The notes: generated from the sequence alone by a model not told the origin. Positions 38,620-64,000 are shown, numbered from the stretch's first letter. The stretch: 64,000 nucleotides of DNA from Pseudomonadota bacterium (GCA_043821645.1 JBDRCO010000023.1:96001-160000); one strand, 5' to 3'. A program made the numbers and translations.

Positions 38620-40341
38620 ATGGGTGAGATCACGATGGGTATCGACCTCGGCACCTCCAACTCCTGCGTCGCCATTGTCGAGGAGGGACAGCCGACTGTC
38701 GTGGCCAACGAGTGGGGTGAGTTCATCCATGCCTCGGTGATCAGCTTTCTCGAGGACGGAACGGTCCTGGTCGGCAACGACGCCAAGCGACAGATGGTGG
38801 CCAACTACGACAACACCGTGTTCTCGGCCAAGCGTCTCATCGGACGCTTCTTCTTCTCGGAAGAGGTCAAGAAGGCGCTGGCGCTGGTGCCCTACCACAT
38901 CGTCGAGGGCCCCAATAACAGTGTACGCATCGCGGTGCGCGAGCAGGTCTACAGCCTGCCCGAACTCTCGGCGCTGATCCTCAAGGAGATGCGAGCCATC
39001 GTCGAGGGTCACGTCGGCAAGCGCGTGCGCAAGGCGGTGGTCACGGTCCCGGCCTACTTCAATGACAACCAGCGGCAAGCGACCAAGGACTCGGGCCGCA
39101 TCGCCGGTCTCGAGGTCATGCGCATCCTCAACGAGCCCACGGCAGCAGCCCTGGCCTACGGCTTTGGCCAGAACATCGCGCAGAACGTGGTGGTCTACGA
39201 CCTCGGTGGAGGGACCTTCGACGTCTCCATCCTCGAGATCGGCGCCGACGTGTTCGAGGTGATCTCCACCGCCGGCGACACCTACCTGGGTGGTGACGAC
39301 TTCGACGAGCGCATCGTGATGTGGCTGTGCGACCAGTTTCAGCAGGCCTTCCAGGTCGACCTGCGCCAGGATCGCTACGCCCTGGCCAAGATCAAGGAAG
39401 CCGCCGAGCGCGCCAAGATCGAGCTCAGCGAGGCCGAGACCGCACACATCCACGTTCCTCTGGTCTTCACCGACGCCGAGGGCTTCAGCTACGACCTCGA
39501 GGCCGACCTGCCGCGCACCCAGTTCAACCAGATGGTGATGGACATGGTGCAGCGCACGTTCAAGGTCTGCGACGAAGCCCTGCAGTCCGCCCGCCTGACG
39601 GCCAACGACATCGACGGCGTGATCCTGGTTGGCGGCCCGACCCGTCTACCCGTGGTGCGCAATTCGGTGCGTCACTACTTCCAGCGCGAGCCCAACGCCG
39701 AGATCGACCCCGATGTGGTGGTGGCCCTGGGCGCCGCCATCCAGGCCAACGCGCTCCTCGATGAGGGGACCTCGACCTTCTTGCTCGATGTCACGCCCTT
39801 GACCCTGCGCCTGGGCACCGTGGGCGGCTACTCCGAGTCCATCATCGAGAAGAACACTCCGATTCCCATCGACCGCACCCGCACCTTCACCACTGCGCGC
39901 GACAATCAGGACCGCGTGGTGATCAAGATCTTCCAGGGCGAGAGCCGGCGGACCGACGAGTGCACCCTCCTGGGGCAGTTCGAATTCTCGGGCCTGCGCC
40001 GGGCAGCCCGCGGCCTGGTCAAGATCGAGGTGACCTTCGAGATCGACACCGACGGCATCGTCAACGTGTCCGCGCGCGACGTGGACACGGGCCAGGAAGC
40101 CTCGACCACCATCAGTCTGTCGTCAGGCTTGACCGAGCAGGACATCGTGCAGGCCACCGAGAGGCAGGAGCAGATCCAGGTCGTGGATCGCTCCCCGGCG
40201 GATGGGAGCGCGCCCACGGCCCAGCTGCCCGCCCAGGGTGACAACGAGCTCACGGCGATGCTACCGGGTCAGGATGCCGGGGACGAACTCACGGCGCTGA
40301 TGGCGCAGGTGGCTGCGAGCCCCGACGTCGACGACGAATAG
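38620..40341 (+). CDS. Hsp70 family protein (DnaK-like, short lid)
   Basis: [47 protein letters not shown] linker. Confidence 0.93.
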
Positions 40342-55803: not shown

Positions 55804-55819
55804 TGGCATGAAGCTCGCT
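55804..55819 (+). promoter_or_regulatory. putative sigma54 promoter
   Basis: TGGCAT-GAAGC-TCGCT with exact -24/-12 spacing, about 40 nt before ATG 55861 (AGGAGG RBS). Confidence 0.55.
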
Positions 55820-55860: not shown

Positions 55861-58068
55861 ATGAGCCATGCAACATCCACCACCATCGAGATCGTGCACG
55901 TGATGTCCGGCGCCGACATCCTGCGCGCCGGCGAGGTGCAGCTGGCCCTGGGCTTTCCCGAGGAGGTGGTCAAGGCCTGGATGCGCGCGGGTCACAGCCC
56001 CAACGCCTGGCTGGTGCCAGACCGGCGCAGCGCCGACGGAGTGGTGCAGTGGGCCTTCGAGTTTCCGCTGTACTACGCGCTGTTCGTGCAGGGCCTGTTC
56101 ACCCGCGGAGAGAAGATCCCGGTGCTGGTCAAGGAACGCGACTGGACGGACCTGGTCGAATACCTGCGCCTGACCTTGCTCGGGCTCCGTGGCGACGAGA
56201 TGAAGCGCGAAGGCGTGCGCGCCCAGGTGGTGGAGCAGCTGACCCGAGAAGGAGCGGCCATGGCGCTCAAGCGCAGCGATGGCGAGATCGCGGGGATCGA
56301 GGATTTTCTGGAGCCACACTTCTTCGACGCCGAGGGCGTGGTCGAATACCTCGGCCTGCGCGTCAAGGCCCATGGCGACAACGTCTACTCCTACTACACC
56401 GAGGCTGATCGCCTGGAGGAGGTGCTGTTGCAGACGGGAGGGGCCGAGGCGCCGCCCTACAGCACGCCGCTGGCGCCGGCCACGGTACCGGTCATGCCGC
56501 AGCCCTTCGAGGTCATCACCCTGGGTTCATCGTCGGGCTTCGATCCGGCCAACCCCTGCACCAGCGTGCTGGTTCAGGCCCATGGCCGGTTCGTGCTGGT
56601 GGACTGCGGGCCCTACGTGCGAGCCCTGCTCCGCCACGCAGGTGTCAGCTTGCAGCAGATCCAGGCGCTCGTCGTCACCCATGCGCACGAGGATCATGCG
56701 GTGGGGCTGAGCGCCCTGCTCGACCTGACGCACCGCCTGCAGCTGTTCGTGACCCGCGAGACCGCAGCCATCTTGCGCCGCAAGCTGGCCATCCTGAACC
56801 CGCAGGTGAGCCGTCCCGAGCGCCTGCTCGACGACGCCTTTGACCTGGTCTACGTGGAACCGGGCCGGGAGGTGAGTTTTCTCGGACTCACGCTGCGCTT
56901 TCACTACACCATGCACGCCATCCCCTGCACCGGCGTCGAGCTCAGCATGCGAGTCGGCACGGAGATCAAGCGCGTCCTCGTGGTCGGCGACAACAACGCC
57001 CGCGCCAACATCGAGCAAGCCGCGACCCAGGGCGTGATCGATGCTGCCCGTCGCGACGAACTGCTGGCGCTGTACGCGTGGCAGGGTGATCTGCTCATCG
57101 CCGACGCCGGTGGCGGCCTGATTCACGGTGTTCCGGCCGACTTCGCGGGCAATCCATCGAGGGACGTGGTCTGCGTGCATACCGGCGCGCTCAAGCCAGA
57201 AGAAAGACACCTGTATACCCTGGCCGCACCAGGTCTCCGCTACACCCTGGTGTCGGAGCAGCGTGGTCCGACCCCCCTTGAGCGCGGGCTCGCCCATCGC
57301 GCCCTGAACGAGGCTTTCACCCAGAGCGCCTCGGCCTGGCTGGACGCCATGCTCGACGCTGCCGAGCCCCTGAGCGTCAACCGCGGCCAGATCGTGGTGC
57401 GCAACGGCGACAGCGGTCAGGACCTGTACGTCGCCTTGACCGGTGAACTGGCCGTGTTGATCGAGGAAGACGGCACGTCGCGCCAGGTCGCCACCGTGAA
57501 CGCCGGCGAGGTCTTTGGCGAGATGGCGGTCGTCAACAGCGCGCCGCGCTCTGCCACGGTGATGGCTCAGACACCGGCGCGCCTGCTGCGCATCCCGGGG
57601 GAGCTGTTCCACTGCTTCGTGGCCGACGCCAAGCTGACCGGAAGCCTGCCCGAGCTGTGGTCCAAGCGCCACGACCTCGAGCGCGTGACCGTGCTCTCCA
57701 ACGCCTCGGTGACGACCCGCAACCTGCTGGCGCGTGCGGCGGTTCGGCGGCAGGTGGAGCCCGGTGCCACCCTCATTCGCGAGGGTTCCCAGAGCGACAC
57801 GGTGTTCATCCTGGTGCAGGGCCGGGTCCAGGTCTACAAGGGCGCCGCGCCTCTGCTCGCGGGAGGCACGCCCATCATCGTCGAGCCGGGCTCCCTGATC
57901 GGTGAGACCGCGCCCTTTCTCAAGCAAGCGCGCAACGCCAGCATCGTGGCACTCGACGCGTGCGAGGTGCTGGCCATTCGCGGCAGTGACTTCAAGCGCG
58001 TGGTGCAGTGTGCTCCGCAACTGTTCCTGGCCATCTCGCGCGTGGTGCGCTCGCGCCAGGCAGCCTGA
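55861..58068 (+). CDS. MBL-fold metallo-hydrolase with two C-terminal cyclic-nucleotide-binding domains (putative cNMP-regulated phosphodiesterase)
   Basis: LGSSSGFDP, LVDCG, THAHEDH (HxHxDH), HAIPC, GD, IHG, VH; cNMP motifs FGEMA…PRSATV and IGETA…RNASIV. Confidence 0.87.
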   Translation: MSHATSTTIEIVHVMSGADILRAGEVQLALGFPEEVVKAWMRAGHSPNAWLVPDRRSADGVVQWAFEFPLYYALFVQGLFTRGEKIPVLVKERDWTDLVEYLRLTLLGLRGDEMKREGVRAQVVEQLTREGAAMALKRSDGEIAGIEDFLEPHFFDAEGVVEYLGLRVKAHGDNVYSYYTEADRLEEVLLQTGGAEAPPYSTPLAPATVPVMPQPFEVITLGSSSGFDPANPCTSVLVQAHGRFVLVDCGPYVRALLRHAGVSLQQIQALVVTHAHEDHAVGLSALLDLTHRLQLFVTRETAAILRRKLAILNPQVSRPERLLDDAFDLVYVEPGREVSFLGLTLRFHYTMHAIPCTGVELSMRVGTEIKRVLVVGDNNARANIEQAATQGVIDAARRDELLALYAWQGDLLIADAGGGLIHGVPADFAGNPSRDVVCVHTGALKPEERHLYTLAAPGLRYTLVSEQRGPTPLERGLAHRALNEAFTQSASAWLDAMLDAAEPLSVNRGQIVVRNGDSGQDLYVALTGELAVLIEEDGTSRQVATVNAGEVFGEMAVVNSAPRSATVMAQTPARLLRIPGELFHCFVADAKLTGSLPELWSKRHDLERVTVLSNASVTTRNLLARAAVRRQVEPGATLIREGSQSDTVFILVQGRVQVYKGAAPLLAGGTPIIVEPGSLIGETAPFLKQARNASIVALDACEVLAIRGSDFKRVVQCAPQLFLAISRVVRSRQAA

Positions 58069-58100: not shown

Positions 58101-59327
58101 ATGCAAACCGTGACCGCCGAACACGCCCTGGCTGTGACCACACAGGTCCAGATCCCGGGCGACGGAGAGGTGCTGCTACGCTGGCAGGCCTCGGGCTCGC
58201 CGTCCTCTTTGTGCGTGCTCATCATCCGCAGCGGCGCGGTGCCTGCTTACACCTCGATCGGTCTCACCGCGCAGAACACGTGTTACCACCTGCGCAACCT
58301 GAGCCGGCATCAGCGCTACATGGTTGCGGTGGCGGCCCTGGGTGGTGGACAGGTGGCTCTCAGTACCTGGACCTCGGTGACACCGCGCGCAGGCCTGCAC
58401 GCCCTGTGCAGCGACGACGGAAACGCTCTGACGCCACACCTCGCGCATGTGACCTCACTCTCCGCCATGCCTCAGGATCGCCGTCTCACCGCCTACTGGA
58501 AACTCTCGAGGGGCTTCGTCGACGGAGTGGTGGTCTCGCTGCACAGTGCAGGGCGCTGCCTCCACCGCTTCGAGCTGGAACCCGAAGTGGTCAGCCTGTC
58601 CCTGGACCAGGGTCGAGGTGTGGCGCTGCGCAATGGCGTGGACTACGAACTCCGCGTGCACAGCCGCTTCGCGGGTGTCGACGTACCTGGGCCCGAGGCG
58701 GTGACCTGCACACCCGCGGCCCAGGGTGAGGAGCGACAGGCGAACCGGAAGCACCCGCAGGCGAACCTGTTTTTCCCCTTTCTCTCCATCGACGCGGAGC
58801 TCAAGGTCTTCGACGACGACGGTTCCGATGAGGCCACGGCGCCGGCTCCTTTGCTGTGCCAGCACTGCCGCAAGCCTGTCTCCTGGGAGCGCTACGAACT
58901 GCGCTGCGTGGGCTGTGGTGCCGAGTACATCCCCAACAGCCTGGGCTCGGTCCTGGAGGTGCGCCGTCTGCGCTTTGGCACCTGCGCCTGTTGCTTGCCG
59001 CGGAGCATCCTGATCCAGAAGCGCGGCAGCACATCACTGACCTGCGCACAGTCCGGCAAGGAACACATCCGTACAGGCAGCGCGGGCTTTTCTCTCATCG
59101 AGGATCTCCCCCACGGCCTGTGCCAGTGCTGCCGGCCGCGCAGGCCCTTGCAGCGCAAGAGTGGAAAGGTGACCTGCAGCAAGACCGGCGAGCCGCACAG
59201 CAACCAGGACGGACGCTATGTGTTGGCGCCGACCCAGCCCGTCTTCGACGCTGCAGCCATCGACGCACTGCTCGATCAGGGGCTGGCGGAGATCTGCTCG
59301 ACGGGTGTCACGCGCGGTCGCCGCTGA
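58101..59327 (+). CDS. cytoplasmic protein: 2x fibronectin type III-like + CxxC Zn ribbon + 2x CxCC..C..H Zn-finger repeats
   Basis: PGDGEVLLRW…LRNL…Y.VAVAA and PQDRRLTAYW…LRNGVDYELRV; CQHC-x12-CVGC; CACC…C…H and CQCC…C…H; no signal peptide. Confidence 0.78.
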   Translation: MQTVTAEHALAVTTQVQIPGDGEVLLRWQASGSPSSLCVLIIRSGAVPAYTSIGLTAQNTCYHLRNLSRHQRYMVAVAALGGGQVALSTWTSVTPRAGLHALCSDDGNALTPHLAHVTSLSAMPQDRRLTAYWKLSRGFVDGVVVSLHSAGRCLHRFELEPEVVSLSLDQGRGVALRNGVDYELRVHSRFAGVDVPGPEAVTCTPAAQGEERQANRKHPQANLFFPFLSIDAELKVFDDDGSDEATAPAPLLCQHCRKPVSWERYELRCVGCGAEYIPNSLGSVLEVRRLRFGTCACCLPRSILIQKRGSTSLTCAQSGKEHIRTGSAGFSLIEDLPHGLCQCCRPRRPLQRKSGKVTCSKTGEPHSNQDGRYVLAPTQPVFDAAAIDALLDQGLAEICSTGVTRGRR

Positions 59328-59340
59328 ACAGCGCGGGGAG

Positions 59341-60849
59341 CTAAATGGGAGGAGGCAGGATGGGGAGGTCGAGTCGCCGGCGCTCGCTCCGCGCCACCGA
59401 GGCCTTGAGCGAGAAGTCTTGCTCGACCACCAGCTCGAGCTGGAGCGGGCCTGGGTTCTGCTGCAACCAGTCCGCCGGCACGCGAAGCAGGCCGACCAGC
59501 TCACGCTCGACGCTGTGCAGCTCGACAGCCTGGATCAGCCCCATCACCAGGTCCTGACCACGGGCCACCGGGGGGGATACGCTGGTGCCACGGCGGCAGG
59601 GCACACCCGTGTTTCGCGGTATGACCTCGTGCATGGCCCCACCTGGCAGCACCACGCCGATGGGTATCGAGACCACGTCGACCAGGTCAGGCCCAGCGGG
59701 CAGATCCATGGAGTGACCGAGGATGGCCGCACCGACGGCCACCGCGAGCTCGGGGTTGATGGCCTTCGTGGGATCGTTCTTGAACGCTGCAGACAGGCGG
59801 CGCTTGAGGGGCAGCATGCGCGTCTGGCCACCCACGAAGACCAGCTCATCCACGTCGTCACGCGTCATCCCGGCGTGCTTGAGCGCCTCGTCACAGGCGC
59901 CCAGGGTCCGCTCGATGAGGTTGGAAGTCAGGGTCTCCAGCGCATCGCGGATCAGCGTGTACTCGAAGTCCACGAACTGGCCATCAGCGCCGCTGCACAC
60001 GAAGGGGACGCGCAGCGTGGTCTCCTCCTGTGTCGACAGCGCGATCTTGGCGGCCTCGGCGGCCAGGAACACACGCTGCATGACCACCTTGTTGGACTGC
60101 ACATCCAGACCGCGAGCGACCTCGAAGCGCTCGATGAGCCTGCGACCTATCTGCTCGTCGAAGTCAGCGCCGCCCAGGAACGCGTCCCCACCTGTGGCGA
60201 GCACGCTGGCCAGGGCGCCGCGCACGGCCACCACGCTGACATCGAAGGTGCCACCTCCCAGATCGTAGATGAGCAGGGTTTGCTCTATTCCGCGCTTCTT
60301 GGCGGCGAACAGGGCAGCAGCGGTGGGCTCATTCACCAGGGCGCGGACCCGCAACCCCGCATCGCTGGCAGCTCGCGCCAGCTCTCGACGCTGGGTATAG
60401 CCGTAGTGCGCCGGCACCGTCAGCACGCAGTCCTCGAAGGGCGCGCCAGCGGCGGCCTGGGCCAGCTCGGCGATGCGGCGCAGCACCAGCGTGGCCACCT
60501 CTCGTAGATGGACCACCTGGCCATAGATCTCCACCGCGCACAGTCCGAGCTCATCTGGGACGAGGGGGTACAGGAAACGCTCGCGATGCCGCTGTACGAA
60601 GCTCGACTTGAGGGAGCGCCCGAGGAACCTTTTGAAGCCGTGGATGGTGTGCGTGGGGTCGTCGATGAGCTGGGTCCGTGCGTTGCTCCCGACGACGTGC
60701 TTGTCGCGTGCGCGGAACCAGACCACGGTGGGCAACACGGCGCTGCGCTCGCTCACAGGGACGACGCGCAAGGTGCGCTTGTGATCGATCCACGCGGCAC
60801 TGGTATTGGTGGTGCCGAAGTCGATACCCAGCACCGGTCGCGGCATCAT
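59341..60849 (-). CDS. atypical Hsp70-family protein (lidless, divergent substrate-binding domain)
   Basis: [45 protein letters not shown]. Confidence 0.88.
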   Translation of the reverse strand: MMPRPVLGIDFGTTNTSAAWIDHKRTLRVVPVSERSAVLPTVVWFRARDKHVVGSNARTQLIDDPTHTIHGFKRFLGRSLKSSFVQRHRERFLYPLVPDELGLCAVEIYGQVVHLREVATLVLRRIAELAQAAAGAPFEDCVLTVPAHYGYTQRRELARAASDAGLRVRALVNEPTAAALFAAKKRGIEQTLLIYDLGGGTFDVSVVAVRGALASVLATGGDAFLGGADFDEQIGRRLIERFEVARGLDVQSNKVVMQRVFLAAEAAKIALSTQEETTLRVPFVCSGADGQFVDFEYTLIRDALETLTSNLIERTLGACDEALKHAGMTRDDVDELVFVGGQTRMLPLKRRLSAAFKNDPTKAINPELAVAVGAAILGHSMDLPAGPDLVDVVSIPIGVVLPGGAMHEVIPRNTGVPCRRGTSVSPPVARGQDLVMGLIQAVELHSVERELVGLLRVPADWLQQNPGPLQLELVVEQDFSLKASVARSERRRLDLPILPPPI

Positions 60850-61065
60850 GGCGGGCTCAAGCTCCCTTCCAGAAACAAGTTCTCCCCGCGACAGCAGCGC
60901 CGGGACACACTCCCCTCCGTCGAGAATCGAACGCAGGGCCAAGGCCCGTCAACGTATTTCCCTCTTTCGGTGCAGCTGCACCCCGCTTCTGATCCACCCT
61001 GGCGCAGAGTGCCCGCAGGAGGCTCCGGTCCACGCGATGGCCCCTGCTTTTTTCTGCAACGGCGC

Positions 61066-61081
61066 TGGCACGACTCTCGCT
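61066..61081 (+). promoter_or_regulatory. putative sigma54 promoter of the E2-JAB-E1 operon
   Basis: TGGCAC-GACTC-TCGCT with exact -24/-12 spacing upstream of ATG 61208. Confidence 0.6.
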
Positions 61082-61207
61082 TCACCTGAATGCGAGGACA
61101 GCAGGAGAGCCGACAGCATCGTCGTCCTCCTGGCGAGGCGCCGCGAGTCTGGAGCGCCTGTCCCGCACAGCGCGCGCTCGACCTGGGTCGACGCCGAGGA
61201 GGATGCC

Positions 61208-61546
61208 ATGTCGCAAACCCTGACAACCCTGGAGCCTATGATCGCTGGCCTGGTTCGCGCGATCTGCACGTGCTGCACCGAGGCGCAGCCGTTGACAGGT
61301 CACCCCGACCTCGACGCCACACAGCTTCTCTGTCCCTCGACACGCTTGACCTACCTCGACCGTGGCGACGGCCTGTTCGAGCCCGATGGGGGACAGTTCA
61401 GCGTGACGGTCGTGCCTACCCAGGGAGCCACCGCGCAGACCGGCGCCGAACCCGATGTGCTGAGCGATAGACCGCGACGCACAGGCAGCAAGGTCAGGAT
61501 CGAGCTGGAACGCGCGACCTTTGCTGGTTTCCGCCGCGCGCGCTGA
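61208..61546 (+). CDS. small CxCC Zn-finger protein, candidate conjugated modifier or substrate
   Basis: GAGGAGG RBS; AICTCC…PL…LLCPST; flexible tail ending RATFAG-FRRAR. Confidence 0.72.
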   Translation: MSQTLTTLEPMIAGLVRAICTCCTEAQPLTGHPDLDATQLLCPSTRLTYLDRGDGLFEPDGGQFSVTVVPTQGATAQTGAEPDVLSDRPRRTGSKVRIELERATFAGFRRAR

Positions 61547-61573
61547 AGACCCCATCGGGGTGAGGAGGACGCC

Positions 61574-62284
61574 ATGGCCGACAAGCTGACCCAGCTCTTC
61601 CCGCGCCGCGTCGACGGGCAGATCACACACCGGACCTGGAGCGTGGACCTGGGCACGGCGCTTCACGTCAACGACCTCGGGGATGGCGGTGGGAGCAGAC
61701 TCCATCGTGAGGTGCAAGAGATGGCCGAGCACTTGCCTCGCTGGGTGCTCACCGTCGCCGAGAACAGCCAGCGGATACCCTGCCCCTCCTGTGGCGGCGT
61801 CCTAGTATTCGACCGGGGAATCCGCTGTGCCGAGTGCGAGCGGGCGCTGGCCAGCCGGCAGATCAAGCGCGGCTTCCTGCTGGCATGGTTCGGGCTGATG
61901 CCGCCCATCGGCATTGACGGTCTGGGCCGGCTCAAGGCTGCGGTGATCAAGCGCGCCCCGCCCCAGCACGTCGTCGGACAGCAGGCTGGAATCGGCCACT
62001 TCTTGCTGGTACCCCTGACCGCGATCTACCCGCCGGGTTTTCCGCACCGCCAGGTCAAGGTGGCCTACCTGCCGGGCTTCTTCAGCATGCCGGGTGTCCC
62101 GTCGACAGGCATGCGTCACGACATCCACATGCTGGACCAGGGTTTCATGTGTCTTTTCGCCGGAGGCCAGTGGCAACCCGAGATGAGTTGCCGCGAGGTG
62201 CTGCAGCAGCGCGCCTACGCGCACGTGGTCAAGCTTCTCAATTTCGGCAATGGCAAGAAGAACGCCTTTGCCAAGGTGAGCTGA
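61574..62284 (+). CDS. Zn-ribbon + E2/UBC-like (ubiquitin-conjugating-type) protein
   Basis: GAGGAGG RBS; CPSC-x11-CAEC; YPPGFP…V…HMLDQGFMCL…WQP…REVL matches the E2 core, with Cys at codon 62150-62152. Confidence 0.75.
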   Translation: MADKLTQLFPRRVDGQITHRTWSVDLGTALHVNDLGDGGGSRLHREVQEMAEHLPRWVLTVAENSQRIPCPSCGGVLVFDRGIRCAECERALASRQIKRGFLLAWFGLMPPIGIDGLGRLKAAVIKRAPPQHVVGQQAGIGHFLLVPLTAIYPPGFPHRQVKVAYLPGFFSMPGVPSTGMRHDIHMLDQGFMCLFAGGQWQPEMSCREVLQQRAYAHVVKLLNFGNGKKNAFAKVS

Positions 62285-63186
62285 TGCGTGCTCTGCCGCG
62301 AATGGAGATCGGGCGCCAGGTGTGGCGGCGCGTGGCGCGCGAACTGGACCGGGTTGCACCCGCCGAAGGGCTGGCCGTGCCCCTGCTCGCGCTGACACCG
62401 CGGGATGTGCAACGCAATCCGTGCACGACACTGCGCCTGGAAGATCTCGAAGTGGTCACCATTGCCCGTGCGGTTCTCGTGCCGCCCGAGCTCCAGCGCA
62501 ACCACCTGATGAGCGTGCGCGCACTGGGCAGTGCTGACGAGCGTGTCAATCGGGAGGTGGTCGGACTCGGACTTCGCTATCCCAGGCTACGGCCCGCTGG
62601 CCACCTTCACTCGCACCCCTTTGCCCGGGGGAACACCTGGCCGTCGAGCGGCCTCAGCGGGGATATCGACGGCCACATGCGGCCCCTGCTGGTGCACAAC
62701 AGCGACGCGGGCGTCGAGGTCAGCTTCAGCTTCATCGCCTGCCGCGATCAAACAGGCCAGAGCTGGGTACTGCAGGCCTTCTCCCTGGATGGCTCCGGGC
62801 AGGTGCACGACCTTGGCCCCTGCCAGGTCGTCGAGGATGAGGCACTGATCGCGCGCGGTCTCTTCACGCCAGGGACGGAGCGTCAGCCCTTGCTGCGAGG
62901 TCTCTGGCAATGCTGGGTCAGGGACCTGAGACGGCAGGGGTGGGCCTGCCGCTGCGCCACGCTCCTCGAAGGCTGGCAACGCTGCATCGTCGAGATGGGT
63001 CAGGGTCTGTGCGCCGTGTTCCTGCTCCCGATCGACTTCCCGGACCGGCCATGCCAGGTCCACGTGGTCATGGCGGGTTCCTCGCGGAGTGAGCGCTTTT
63101 TCACGCCTCACCTGCGGAGTCTGGACACCGATGCCTGGGTGCGGGTCGCCCTGGAAGTGGAGGTTGCCTGCCGTGCCGCAGCATGA
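62284..63186 (+). CDS. JAB/MPN+ (JAMM) metalloprotease fused to an E2/RWD-like C-terminal domain
   Basis: TGATG overlap with the upstream gene; PAEG (catalytic Glu), GHLHSHP…WPSS…GD; C-terminal FLLPIDFPDRP. Confidence 0.75.
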   Translation: MRALPRMEIGRQVWRRVARELDRVAPAEGLAVPLLALTPRDVQRNPCTTLRLEDLEVVTIARAVLVPPELQRNHLMSVRALGSADERVNREVVGLGLRYPRLRPAGHLHSHPFARGNTWPSSGLSGDIDGHMRPLLVHNSDAGVEVSFSFIACRDQTGQSWVLQAFSLDGSGQVHDLGPCQVVEDEALIARGLFTPGTERQPLLRGLWQCWVRDLRRQGWACRCATLLEGWQRCIVEMGQGLCAVFLLPIDFPDRPCQVHVVMAGSSRSERFFTPHLRSLDTDAWVRVALEVEVACRAAA

Positions 63187-64000
63187 CGACTACTTCGCCC
63201 GGGTTCGCCCCCTCCTCGGGGAGGGTCTTGCCAGGATGTGCATCGACGTCGACGACCTGTCCCTGTGCAGCAAGACCATCGCGCTGCTCGGCTCGTGCAT
63301 GCTGGGGTCCGTTCACGTCCGGGACACCCAGGAGGTGGCCAGATGGCCCCTCGTCGAACGGGCGCGATCCCCCTCGCCCGGTGCCGCACTCCCGCGTGCC
63401 ATCGACGTGCTGAAGACCGCTCTGGAGTGGAACAACCCGCAACACGCGGTGCATCTCGACGGAGATCCCGCATCGTCCATCCATCTTCGAGGGCAGCGCA
63501 CCGCAGCCGGGGGGACCTGTGCCGTGCACTGGGACCCCGAGGCTCGACGCTACACCCTGCTCGTTCCGGAAAAGGACACCTGGTCCTGGCACCTGGCCTC
63601 TTACCTGTCTGCCCTGGACCTCCGGGATCACCTTCTAAAAAGGCGAATCCTTCCCCCCGGGACACGTCACCTCGGACATCCATCCTGGCCCTTTGCGCAG
63701 TCCAGCGCGCCCGTGCCGTCGTGGTGGGGACCCCAGCTCCGCACCCAGACAGGCCATGTGATGGTGGTCGGCCTGGGCAGCGTGGGCAGCGAAGTGTTAC
63801 GGACCCTGTCGGGCGCCCCGCTGCGCTTCACCCTGGTCGACGACGGACACGTGAGCGCCTTCAATCTGGTCCGGCAGTGGTTCGGGGCCGAGGAGATCGG
63901 AGAGCACAAGGTCGAGGCGTTGGCCTCGCGCGTCGGTCGAGATCGTTGCCACGCCGTTCCGCTGGCGCTCGGACAGGGCAACCGGGTCCAGTTGCATCAG
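63173..64000 (+). CDS. ThiF/E1-like adenylating enzyme with a degenerate N-terminal ThiF-like domain (3' truncated)
   Basis: Not in the ORF track. GTG 63173 after GGAGGT, open to the window end; N-terminus DYFARVRPLLG; later HVMVVGLGSVGS…FTLVDDGHVSAFNLVRQ…IGEHKVEAL. Confidence 0.85.
   Translation, partial: MPQHDDYFARVRPLLGEGLARMCIDVDDLSLCSKTIALLGSCMLGSVHVRDTQEVARWPLVERARSPSPGAALPRAIDVLKTALEWNNPQHAVHLDGDPASSIHLRGQRTAAGGTCAVHWDPEARRYTLLVPEKDTWSWHLASYLSALDLRDHLLKRRILPPGTRHLGHPSWPFAQSSAPVPSWWGPQLRTQTGHVMVVGLGSVGSEVLRTLSGAPLRFTLVDDGHVSAFNLVRQWFGAEEIGEHKVEALASRVGRDRCHAVPLALGQGNRVQLHQ

Follow-up and report, generated by a model that had tools for sequence, protein, structure and literature searches.

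A conserved bacterial gene cassette for a putative Bil-like conjugation pathway with a zinc-ribbon candidate modifier

The window analysed here, a stretch of 64,000 nucleotides from a Pseudomonadota bacterium (GCA_043821645.1, JBDRCO010000023.1:96001-160000), ends in four co-oriented genes that are the 3' part of a six-gene cassette. In order, the six genes encode a metallo-beta-lactamase-fold hydrolase with two cyclic nucleotide monophosphate-binding domains (MBL-2xcNMP), a protein with fibronectin type III-like and multiple zinc-binding parts (FN3/Zn), a small CxCC protein, an E2-like protein, a JAB/JAMM peptidase and an E1. The last four very probably constitute an E1/E2/JAB conjugation-type system, and the closest known system is Bil, which has the same gene order, a relationship absent from the original prediction made on this DNA. 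We also favor, with less assurance, a Bil-type conjugation pathway whose chemistry we infer, in which the small protein would serve as a JAB-trimmed tag without the beta-grasp fold of ubiquitin-like proteins (Ubls).

All four genes lie on the plus strand, in a region of 65-68% GC (guanine plus cytosine). The gene for the small protein (61208..61546; 112 amino acids, aa, with CxCC at residues 20-23) is separated by a 27-bp gap from that of the E2-like protein (61574..62284; 236 aa), whose TGA has one base in common with the ATG of the JAB gene (62284..63186), giving the sequence TGATG. The GTG start of the E1 at 63173 overlaps the JAB stop by 14 bp and is backed by the N-termini of 11 homologs and by an identical ESM Atlas record. 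The E1 gene (63173..64000 within the window) extends 657 bp beyond the window edge to a stop at window-equivalent 64657, completing a protein of 494 aa, and the next gene 3' is a threonine synthase gene in convergent orientation; E1 thus closes the operon, and the earlier suggestion that further components might follow beyond the edge did not hold. The DNA downstream of E1 contained no Ubl gene, in line with the lack of a conventional Ubl within view of the original prediction. In other respects that prediction fared well: translation and coordinates confirmed the four open reading frames (ORFs) and their spacing, folds and motifs agreed with the assignment of a small CxCC protein, a Zn-ribbon E2, a JAMM protease and a ThiF adenylase, and neither Pfam nor PADLOC revealed a CD-NTase among the six proteins of the cassette.

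Conserved gene order and predicted enzymes

The linkage of the four genes to the FN3/Zn and MBL-cNMP genes, proposed from this one stretch, recurred across genomes. A scan of one genome per species gave 15 related loci, which were compared with the window proteins by tblastn; all six genes were contiguous and co-oriented in 10 of these, the remaining five were cut by contig ends, and no locus had a different order. Counted by genome, the contiguous, co-oriented cassette recurs in 14 others. Two loci (L014 and L017) are contigs of a single metagenome-assembled genome (MAG) and jointly carry the full gene set. The loci occur in MAGs labelled Myxococcota or 'Deltaproteobacteria', Riflebacteria and Schekmanbacteria, and no gene outside the six was conserved across them.

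The original prediction would have fallen had the protein encoded from 61574 lacked a UBC fold; both this fold and an invariant Cys were found. The AF2 model of the E2-like protein has a predicted local distance difference test score (pLDDT) of 93, and its best Foldseek matches were UEV/UBC domains, although weak (E = 5.6e-3). In a Foldseek-independent search (VIA), all 50 listed rows were UBC, UEV or RWD domains, headed by the Vps23 UEV domain (Z 8.9, root-mean-square deviation, rmsd, 4.2, 133 aligned residues), with bacterial matches to CdnG-E2 (Z 6.5) and BubB (Z 6.4). Searches by sequence returned no Pfam E2 family at E <= 1, no NCBIfam or PADLOC match, and nothing below 0.14 in a sequence-profile search of the PDB. 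The 94 homologs recovered at E <= 0.001 among 529 candidates were all unnamed or 'hypothetical', and none of the 94 carried a precomputed Pfam domain. Across 30 aligned sequences chosen from these homologs, C70, C73, C85 and C88 are invariant and lie in an early insertion in the fold, where they form a predicted Zn ribbon that is kept across three E2 subfamilies. Invariant in the same alignment are H182, H185 and C193, in the motif H182..H185..G..MC193LF, whose His-containing part before Cys193 we take to be comparable to the HPN..C motif. Cys193, which the model places in a loop between E162-165 and H206-225, is the candidate catalytic Cys and is nearly invariant across the three subfamilies.

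The JAB protein is likewise best described by its model (pLDDT 95), as it matched no Pfam, NCBIfam or PADLOC family and nothing at E <= 10 in the PDB sequence-profile search. Residues 1-195 form an MPN/JAMM domain (Foldseek match to Rpn11, E 2.4e-7; VIA Z 13-15), with bacterial matches to Cap3 (9ild_A, Z 14.0, rmsd 2.4 over 140 residues), BubCD (Z 12.2) and BilC (8tyy_B, Z 12.0). All residues of the JAMM set E/HxH/S/D (E28, H109-S-H111-P, S121 and D127) are unchanged across 27 sequences, and shorter homologs have the canonical HxHx10SxxD spacing. Residues 196-300 resemble UBC/UEV/RWD domains (Z 7.4-8.7, including FANCL at Z 8.7 and the Tsg101 UEV at Z 8.3), and because they hold no invariant Cys this part is predicted to be an inactive E2-like module. 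A 17-column hhalign match between this domain and the E2 on a YP..FP..P motif (E 0.0016, probability 16%) is a lead towards paralogy, not proof of it. Models and alignments together thus bear out the predicted pairing of a stand-alone Zn-ribbon E2 with a JAB fused to an E2/RWD-like domain.

The E1 consists of an N-terminal domain of about 190 aa and a ThiF adenylation domain (Pfam ThiF, 6.3e-11). Across 12 sequences there is no change in its GxGSxGS motif, in R234-Q235, in the Zn cysteines C334/C337/C463/C466 or in Cys421. The nearest E1 clusters in the ESM Atlas carry ThiF together with BilD_N (feature score 0.92; TM 0.66 over 413 aa). In one Myxococcota MAG (L010:8696-11080) the JAB and E1 frames are continuous in a 794-aa ORF, which may represent a natural fusion of JAB and E1, like those of BubCD and operon type 6a, or else an assembly or read-through artefact.

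These features place the cassette closest to Bil (BilABCD, types I and II). The Bil genes are ordered Ubl-E2-DUB-E1, where DUB denotes a deubiquitinase; BilD combines an inactive and an active adenylation domain with a Cys insertion (C417) and a Zn site (C340/C343/C491/C493), and BilA has up to nine residues after a conserved Gly, which is exposed for adenylation through pre-processing by the DUB (Chambers et al., 10.1101/2023.09.26.559546). The cassette has the same order of modifier, E2, JAB DUB and E1 in separate genes, with stand-alone E2 and E1. Its E1 resembles BilD in the extra N-terminal domain before ThiF, in the four-Cys Zn site and in a Cys placed between the CxxC pairs, with near-equal numbering (340/343/491/493 and catalytic C417 in BilD vs 334/337/463/466 and 421 here). 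Its JAB shares the fold of BilC, and its candidate modifier, like BilA, has a short, variable C-terminal extension. Unlike Bil, the first of these genes encodes no recognisable beta-grasp Ubl but a CxCC Zn domain with a variable linker and a tail that ends in Ala rather than the Gly of BilA. Unlike BilB, the E2 has an inserted Zn ribbon and matches no Pfam Prok-E2 or CEHH-type family; its JAB partner carries a fused UBC/RWD-like domain, and two extra conserved genes (MBL-2xcNMP and FN3/Zn) and a sigma54-type motif accompany the set.

The small protein as a candidate modifier

The small protein occupies the Ubl slot of the Bil gene order. Its homologs share invariant cysteines (C20-x-C22-C23...C42) and a DRGDG motif; beyond a linker whose length varies comes the conserved tail DRPxRTxxKxRIxLERATFA, which ends at Ala106 and is followed in the window copy by a 6-aa extension (GFRRAR). 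Among the best 120 of 187 homolog matches, ATFA is present in 117 and replaced by TTFA or VTFA in two, and the last is divergent. The protein stops at that Ala in 66 of the 117, while the other 51 extend for 1-27 unconserved residues, 29 of them starting with G. A constant ATFA with variable residues after it is what one would expect if a modifier had its C-terminus exposed by a peptidase. Pfam, NCBIfam and PADLOC gave no match to this protein, a PDB-profile search gave one chance match at 0.33, and a search of the Atlas was uninformative, with scores no higher than 0.84 and no family. The protein is likely a Zn ribbon and not a beta-grasp protein, since four conserved Cys fall within an ordered part of about 50 residues.

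Comparison among sister operons is consistent with a role of the JAB in processing this tail. Clusters recovered with the E2 profile fall into three operon subfamilies, the window locus belonging to subfamily i. Small protein, E2 and E1 are present in the loci of subfamily ii (L027, L030, L031 and L032), the E1 adjoining the E2 or lying elsewhere in the operon (L027, L031 and L032), and no JAB was found in the DNA seen of these four loci. All four of their small proteins stop exactly at ...IDLS-x-x-G-Y-[AS], with no extension. Subfamily iii (L028 and L029) has a JAB, and the sole copy of the small protein seen there continues for 13 aa after ...EFYG. The pairing of JAB presence with extensions, in a small sample of 5 sister loci, is what a processing role predicts.

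Under the preferred reading, the JAB would remove the variable residues after ...ERATFA of the small protein; the BilD-like E1 would then adenylate the exposed C-terminal Ala and accept the tag on Cys421, from which it would move to Cys193 of the Zn-ribbon E2 and on to a target amine. The JAB may also reverse conjugation, and its Cys-less UBC-like domain could dock the E2, the E1 or the modifier. The FN3/Zn protein, with two modifier-like CxCC Zn modules, may be an adaptor or target; as for the cNMP-gated MBL hydrolase, it may likewise be a target, or else a regulated effector. More tentatively, and with doubt slightly outweighing confidence, the modifier may be of a non-ubiquitin-fold kind, in which a Zn-ribbon head and a disordered linker carry a ubiquitin-tail-like [KR]-I-[DE]-L-x4-[FY]-[AGS] segment, served by a dedicated E1-E2-DUB cascade. 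Equally tentative is a superfamily of such modifiers, spread over three or more operon subfamilies in MAGs labelled Myxococcota, Riflebacteria, Schekmanbacteria and Sericytochromatia, its subfamily i going together with a sigma54-type promoter motif and a cyclic-nucleotide-gated MBL hydrolase.

Accessory genes, upstream motifs and distribution

The first cassette gene (gene 1; 55861..58068, plus strand) encodes a 735-aa protein with a ~220-aa N-terminal domain of no known family, an MBL-fold hydrolase domain (Lactamase_B_2, 4.4e-12) and two cNMP-binding domains (Pfam cNMP_binding 9.7e-36, in two stretches); its nearest NCBIfam model, RNase Z, scores 52 bits where the cut-off is 293. Identity across 11 loci is 53-66%. 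The protein ends in ...RQAA (58054-58068, plus strand), and the equivalent ends in L003-L016 follow the pattern ...R-x-A-A, so that 'AA' without extension is found in 11 of 12 copies, the remaining one (L008) ending in RARA. This terminus could be an alternative E1 substrate, as in CD-NTases, or a C-terminal degron. Gene 2 (58101..59327, plus strand; about 408 aa, start uncertain) is conserved in 13 loci and combines FN3-like N-terminal parts (Pfam fn3 at 0.075 only) with a single CxxC..CxxC ribbon and a pair of CxCC..C repeats; at the C-terminal end, a conserved helix is followed by G[VI][ST]R[GA] and a basic tail. Its first CxCC repeat shows a weak likeness to the small protein (hhalign E 0.0011, probability 20%). 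For either gene product the role could be that of effector, adaptor, target or alternative substrate of the E1.

In this genome only, the cassette is split between the FN3/Zn and small-protein genes by an Hsp70-like gene on the minus strand (59341..60942; 533 aa; Pfam HSP70, 1.2e-99). No such gene lies within the cassette of any other subfamily-i locus, or in the flanks scanned for 12 of those loci. Operonic Hsp70-like genes also occur in two sister loci of subfamily ii, directly 3' of E1 in L027 (4240-5790) and first in the operon in L031 (1481-3145). Orthology of the window gene to these copies was considered and rejected: the L027 protein prefers other paralogs, and the window copy ranked 7th of 10. 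The genome has at least 10 Hsp70-family loci, including a second one in the window at about 38635-40092 (contig 134635-136092), the third-best match to the L027 protein. Hsp70-like genes near the cassettes could reflect independent recruitment or coincidence. Subfamily ii also has an extra, conserved-looking gene of ~235-267 aa (L027:5813-6520; L031:3216-4019), between the Hsp70-like and Zn-protein genes, whose predicted product resembles isochorismatase-type hydrolases by eye.

The sigma54 motif of the original prediction is present before the small gene (TGGCACGACTCTCGCT, 61066..61081, plus strand, 127 bp upstream), but it is insignificant alone, with one match in the window, 0.39 expected and at least one in 27 of 100 shuffles, and it is a second copy: the usual site of the motif is upstream of the MBL-cNMP gene. 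There the window has a sigma54-type -24/-12 motif (TGGCATGAAGCTCGCT, 55804..55819, plus strand) 57 bp before the start, and the pattern TGGCA[CT]N5T[CGT]GC[ATC] occurs within 400 bp upstream of that start in 8 of 11 other loci, against a chance rate of about 0.002 per 400 bp at the local GC by a rough hand calculation. It lies at -28 to -73 in seven of these eight, as does the window copy at -57; of the other three loci, one carries a looser form of the pattern and two lack it. In six aligned upstream regions with differing flanks the core TGGCA.G....TCGCT does not vary, and we infer from sequence that the motif would act as a sigma54 promoter. In 13 other loci, where the cassette is uninterrupted, the motif is missing before the small gene, which suggests that the 61066 copy is a second promoter motif for those operon genes that the Hsp70-like gene cuts off.

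The 69 flanking ORFs scanned with Pfam, from 12 loci, proved to be mixed housekeeping genes with no recurring neighbor (Uma2 twice, AAA_14/DUF4143 once, one GT4-conflict match); on this Pfam evidence a defence-island context was set aside. Some flanks hold nucleotide-signalling genes, for a cNMP-binding histidine kinase, a GGDEF-EAL protein and an Apyc1-like MBL (8.9e-16), at L009:7289-8443, L010:1969-3897 and L012:13579-14586, none of them conserved across loci.

The family is rare. Both genomes of the order carry the E2; of 401 genomes sampled from the phylum 9 do, or 5 of 316 if only those of good quality are counted; a search of the phylum with the subfamily-ii profile recovered only the same 9 genomes, and a metagenome scan with P0245 gave no matches. 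Against 1.84 billion representatives, the E2 profile recovered 70 clusters (at 50% identity) with E <= 0.001, of which 47 reached 1e-10 and 15 reached 1e-30. At about 70 such clusters, the family is unnamed in Pfam, NCBIfam and PADLOC. A description of the cassette was not found in the literature searched, including the available parts of PMC1779556 and PMC7159879, although the supplementary operon tables of the Bil and Bub reports could list it.

Alternative explanations and biological meaning

Several results weigh against a Bil-like pathway with the small protein as its tag. The E2, JAB and small protein are in no curated family, and therefore all assignments except that of ThiF rest on predicted folds and motifs. 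The Atlas model of the small protein has a pLDDT of 0.40 and no confident fold, so that a beta-grasp fold is formally possible, and its terminal residue is Ala rather than the Gly of known Ubls. Prediction of a complex between the E1 and the small protein gave weak support (median 0.40; runs 0.14, 0.40 and 0.57; best of three controls 0.01), the runs agreeing in at least 25% of contacts with a small-protein pLDDT of at least 47 (48-56). Of 80 solved complexes, 58 attained the mark used, as did 2 of 110 mismatched pairs; at scores of 0.60 or lower only 7 of the 80 did, together with both passing mismatches, a calibration that is only rough here since custom alignments were used. As for the E1, the description 'tandem ThiF' stands only as the Atlas likeness to BilD-type E1s: its N-terminal domain has no sequence likeness to its own ThiF domain (hhalign probability 0.6%), and PF14463 (E1-N) had no match in the genome. 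Cys421 is the presumed catalytic residue on the strength of its invariance and position. Finally, the small-residue termini of the MBL-cNMP and FN3/Zn proteins are possible E1 substrates in their own right.

This last point leads to the strongest alternative, which we nonetheless regard as unlikely: that the E1 and E2 prime an enzyme, as in type II CBASS or 6A-MBL, by conjugating the C-terminus of MBL-2xcNMP or FN3/Zn to targets in the cell and thereby switching the enzyme on, with the JAB reversing conjugation and the small CxCC protein acting as adaptor, decoy or regulator. Conjugation of the CD-NTase C-terminus in CBASS is a non-Ubl precedent (PMC11601603), and in operon type 6a an MBL protein accompanies a single E2-E1-JAB polypeptide (Iyer et al. 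2006, PMC1779556), 6A-MBL being named as a defence component in a review (PMC13276650). The cassette shares the E1, E2 and JAB triad with type II CBASS and its coupling in the genome to an MBL-fold protein with 6A-MBL; Cap3 is the closest bacterial structural match of the JAB, the nearly constant AA terminus of MBL-cNMP lacks an extension, and the best PADLOC matches of the E1 are Cap2-type E1-E2 models (4.7e-14, residues 216-370 only). The E1 also matches NCBIfam NF058523 (6A-MBL cap2_3) at 1.2e-9, yet over residues 220-282 only and with 37.2 bits against a cut-off of 320, and no 6A-type MBL model was found for gene 1 among the best 25 of 43 families. Unlike type II CBASS, the cassette has no CD-NTase and no cyclic-oligonucleotide effector, and its E2 and E1 are separate genes; unlike 6A-MBL, it has three separate enzymes, the small protein and the FN3/Zn protein, and its MBL is fused to two cNMP domains. 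The gene order is that of Bil, not of Cap2/Cap3, and the loci seen of subfamily ii keep the small protein, E2 and E1 with no MBL-cNMP gene. Priming of an enzyme would moreover leave unexplained both the ATFA with variable extensions and the exact termini of the JAB-less subfamily.

Very improbable, in our view, is a pathway without conjugation, in which the ThiF enzyme would adenylate the small protein for an MccB/PaaA-like RiPP (ribosomally synthesised and post-translationally modified peptide) or for ThiS/MoaD/CysO-like sulfur transfer, with the JAB as a maturation peptidase as in CysO-Mec and QbsE-QbsD: although the E1 profile matches MccB (4.1e-7), PaaA (1.2e-4), MoeB (2.3e-8) and ThiF (2.5e-6) in a range similar to that of Ubl E1s, and a trimmed small Cys-rich protein could be a precursor or carrier, such pathways are without E2, whereas a UBC-fold protein with an invariant active-site-like Cys is kept at every locus and in all three subfamilies, the E1 architecture and gene order are Bil-like, and no sulfurtransferase, rhodanese, RiPP tailoring or export genes were conserved alongside the cassette in the loci and flanks surveyed. 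ThiF/MoeB sulfur-carrier pathways use a beta-grasp ThiS/MoaD carrier that ends in GG and have no E2; unlike them, the cassette has a conserved E2 and a carrier candidate that ends in Ala and has no ThiS/MoaD match, and all E1 scores against NCBIfam ThiF/MoeB models were far under their cut-offs.

Bub (types I and II) is likewise organized as an E1/E2/Ubl/peptidase operon, and BubB and BubCD are among the structural matches of the E2 and JAB (Z 6.4 and 12.2). Bub proceeds through oxyester (Ser) intermediates with an E1 that lacks a catalytic Cys (PMC11601596); in the cassette, by contrast, E2 and E1 each have an invariant Cys (C193 and C421), and no DUF6527-type Pfam match was found. Apart from the weak Cap2-type matches on the Rossmann region of the E1, no known Bil, Bub or CBASS model matched the locus. 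By the tests made, the cassette works most like Bil yet is a member of none of Bil, CBASS, 6A-MBL and Bub. The UBC fold of the E2, the lack of a downstream Ubl gene and the lack of a matching model support the originally predicted distinct protein-tagging pathway.

A Bil-like tagging pathway of this kind may serve phage defence, or it may serve a regulated response to stress or in development. Defence would fit its patchy spread over MAGs of differently labelled phyla and a cNMP-gated hydrolase that resembles the sensor parts of Pycsar effectors, and the conserved sigma54-type motif and ordinary chromosomal flanks fit a regulated cellular response.

Characterised bacterial conjugation systems (CBASS Cap2/Cap3, Bil and Bub) to our knowledge use beta-grasp Ubls or an enzyme's own C-terminus as the tag. 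Protein tagging by a zinc-binding small protein with a trimmed tail, the likely tag here, was not found described in the literature searched. The cassette keeps Bil-type enzymes but has a probable zinc-ribbon protein, whose tail would be trimmed, in the place of the Ubl, and adds to Bil a Zn-ribbon E2, a JAB-UEV fusion, a cNMP-gated hydrolase and a sigma54-type motif. If the modifier is indeed of a non-ubiquitin-fold kind, E1/E2 conjugation evolved or was re-used with a tag outside the beta-grasp fold. Should the proposed chemistry hold, it would widen the range of possible E1/E2 modifiers, provide a small and simple tag for studying how E1 enzymes recognise tails, and tie such tagging to signalling through cyclic nucleotides and sigma54 in social or developmental bacteria.

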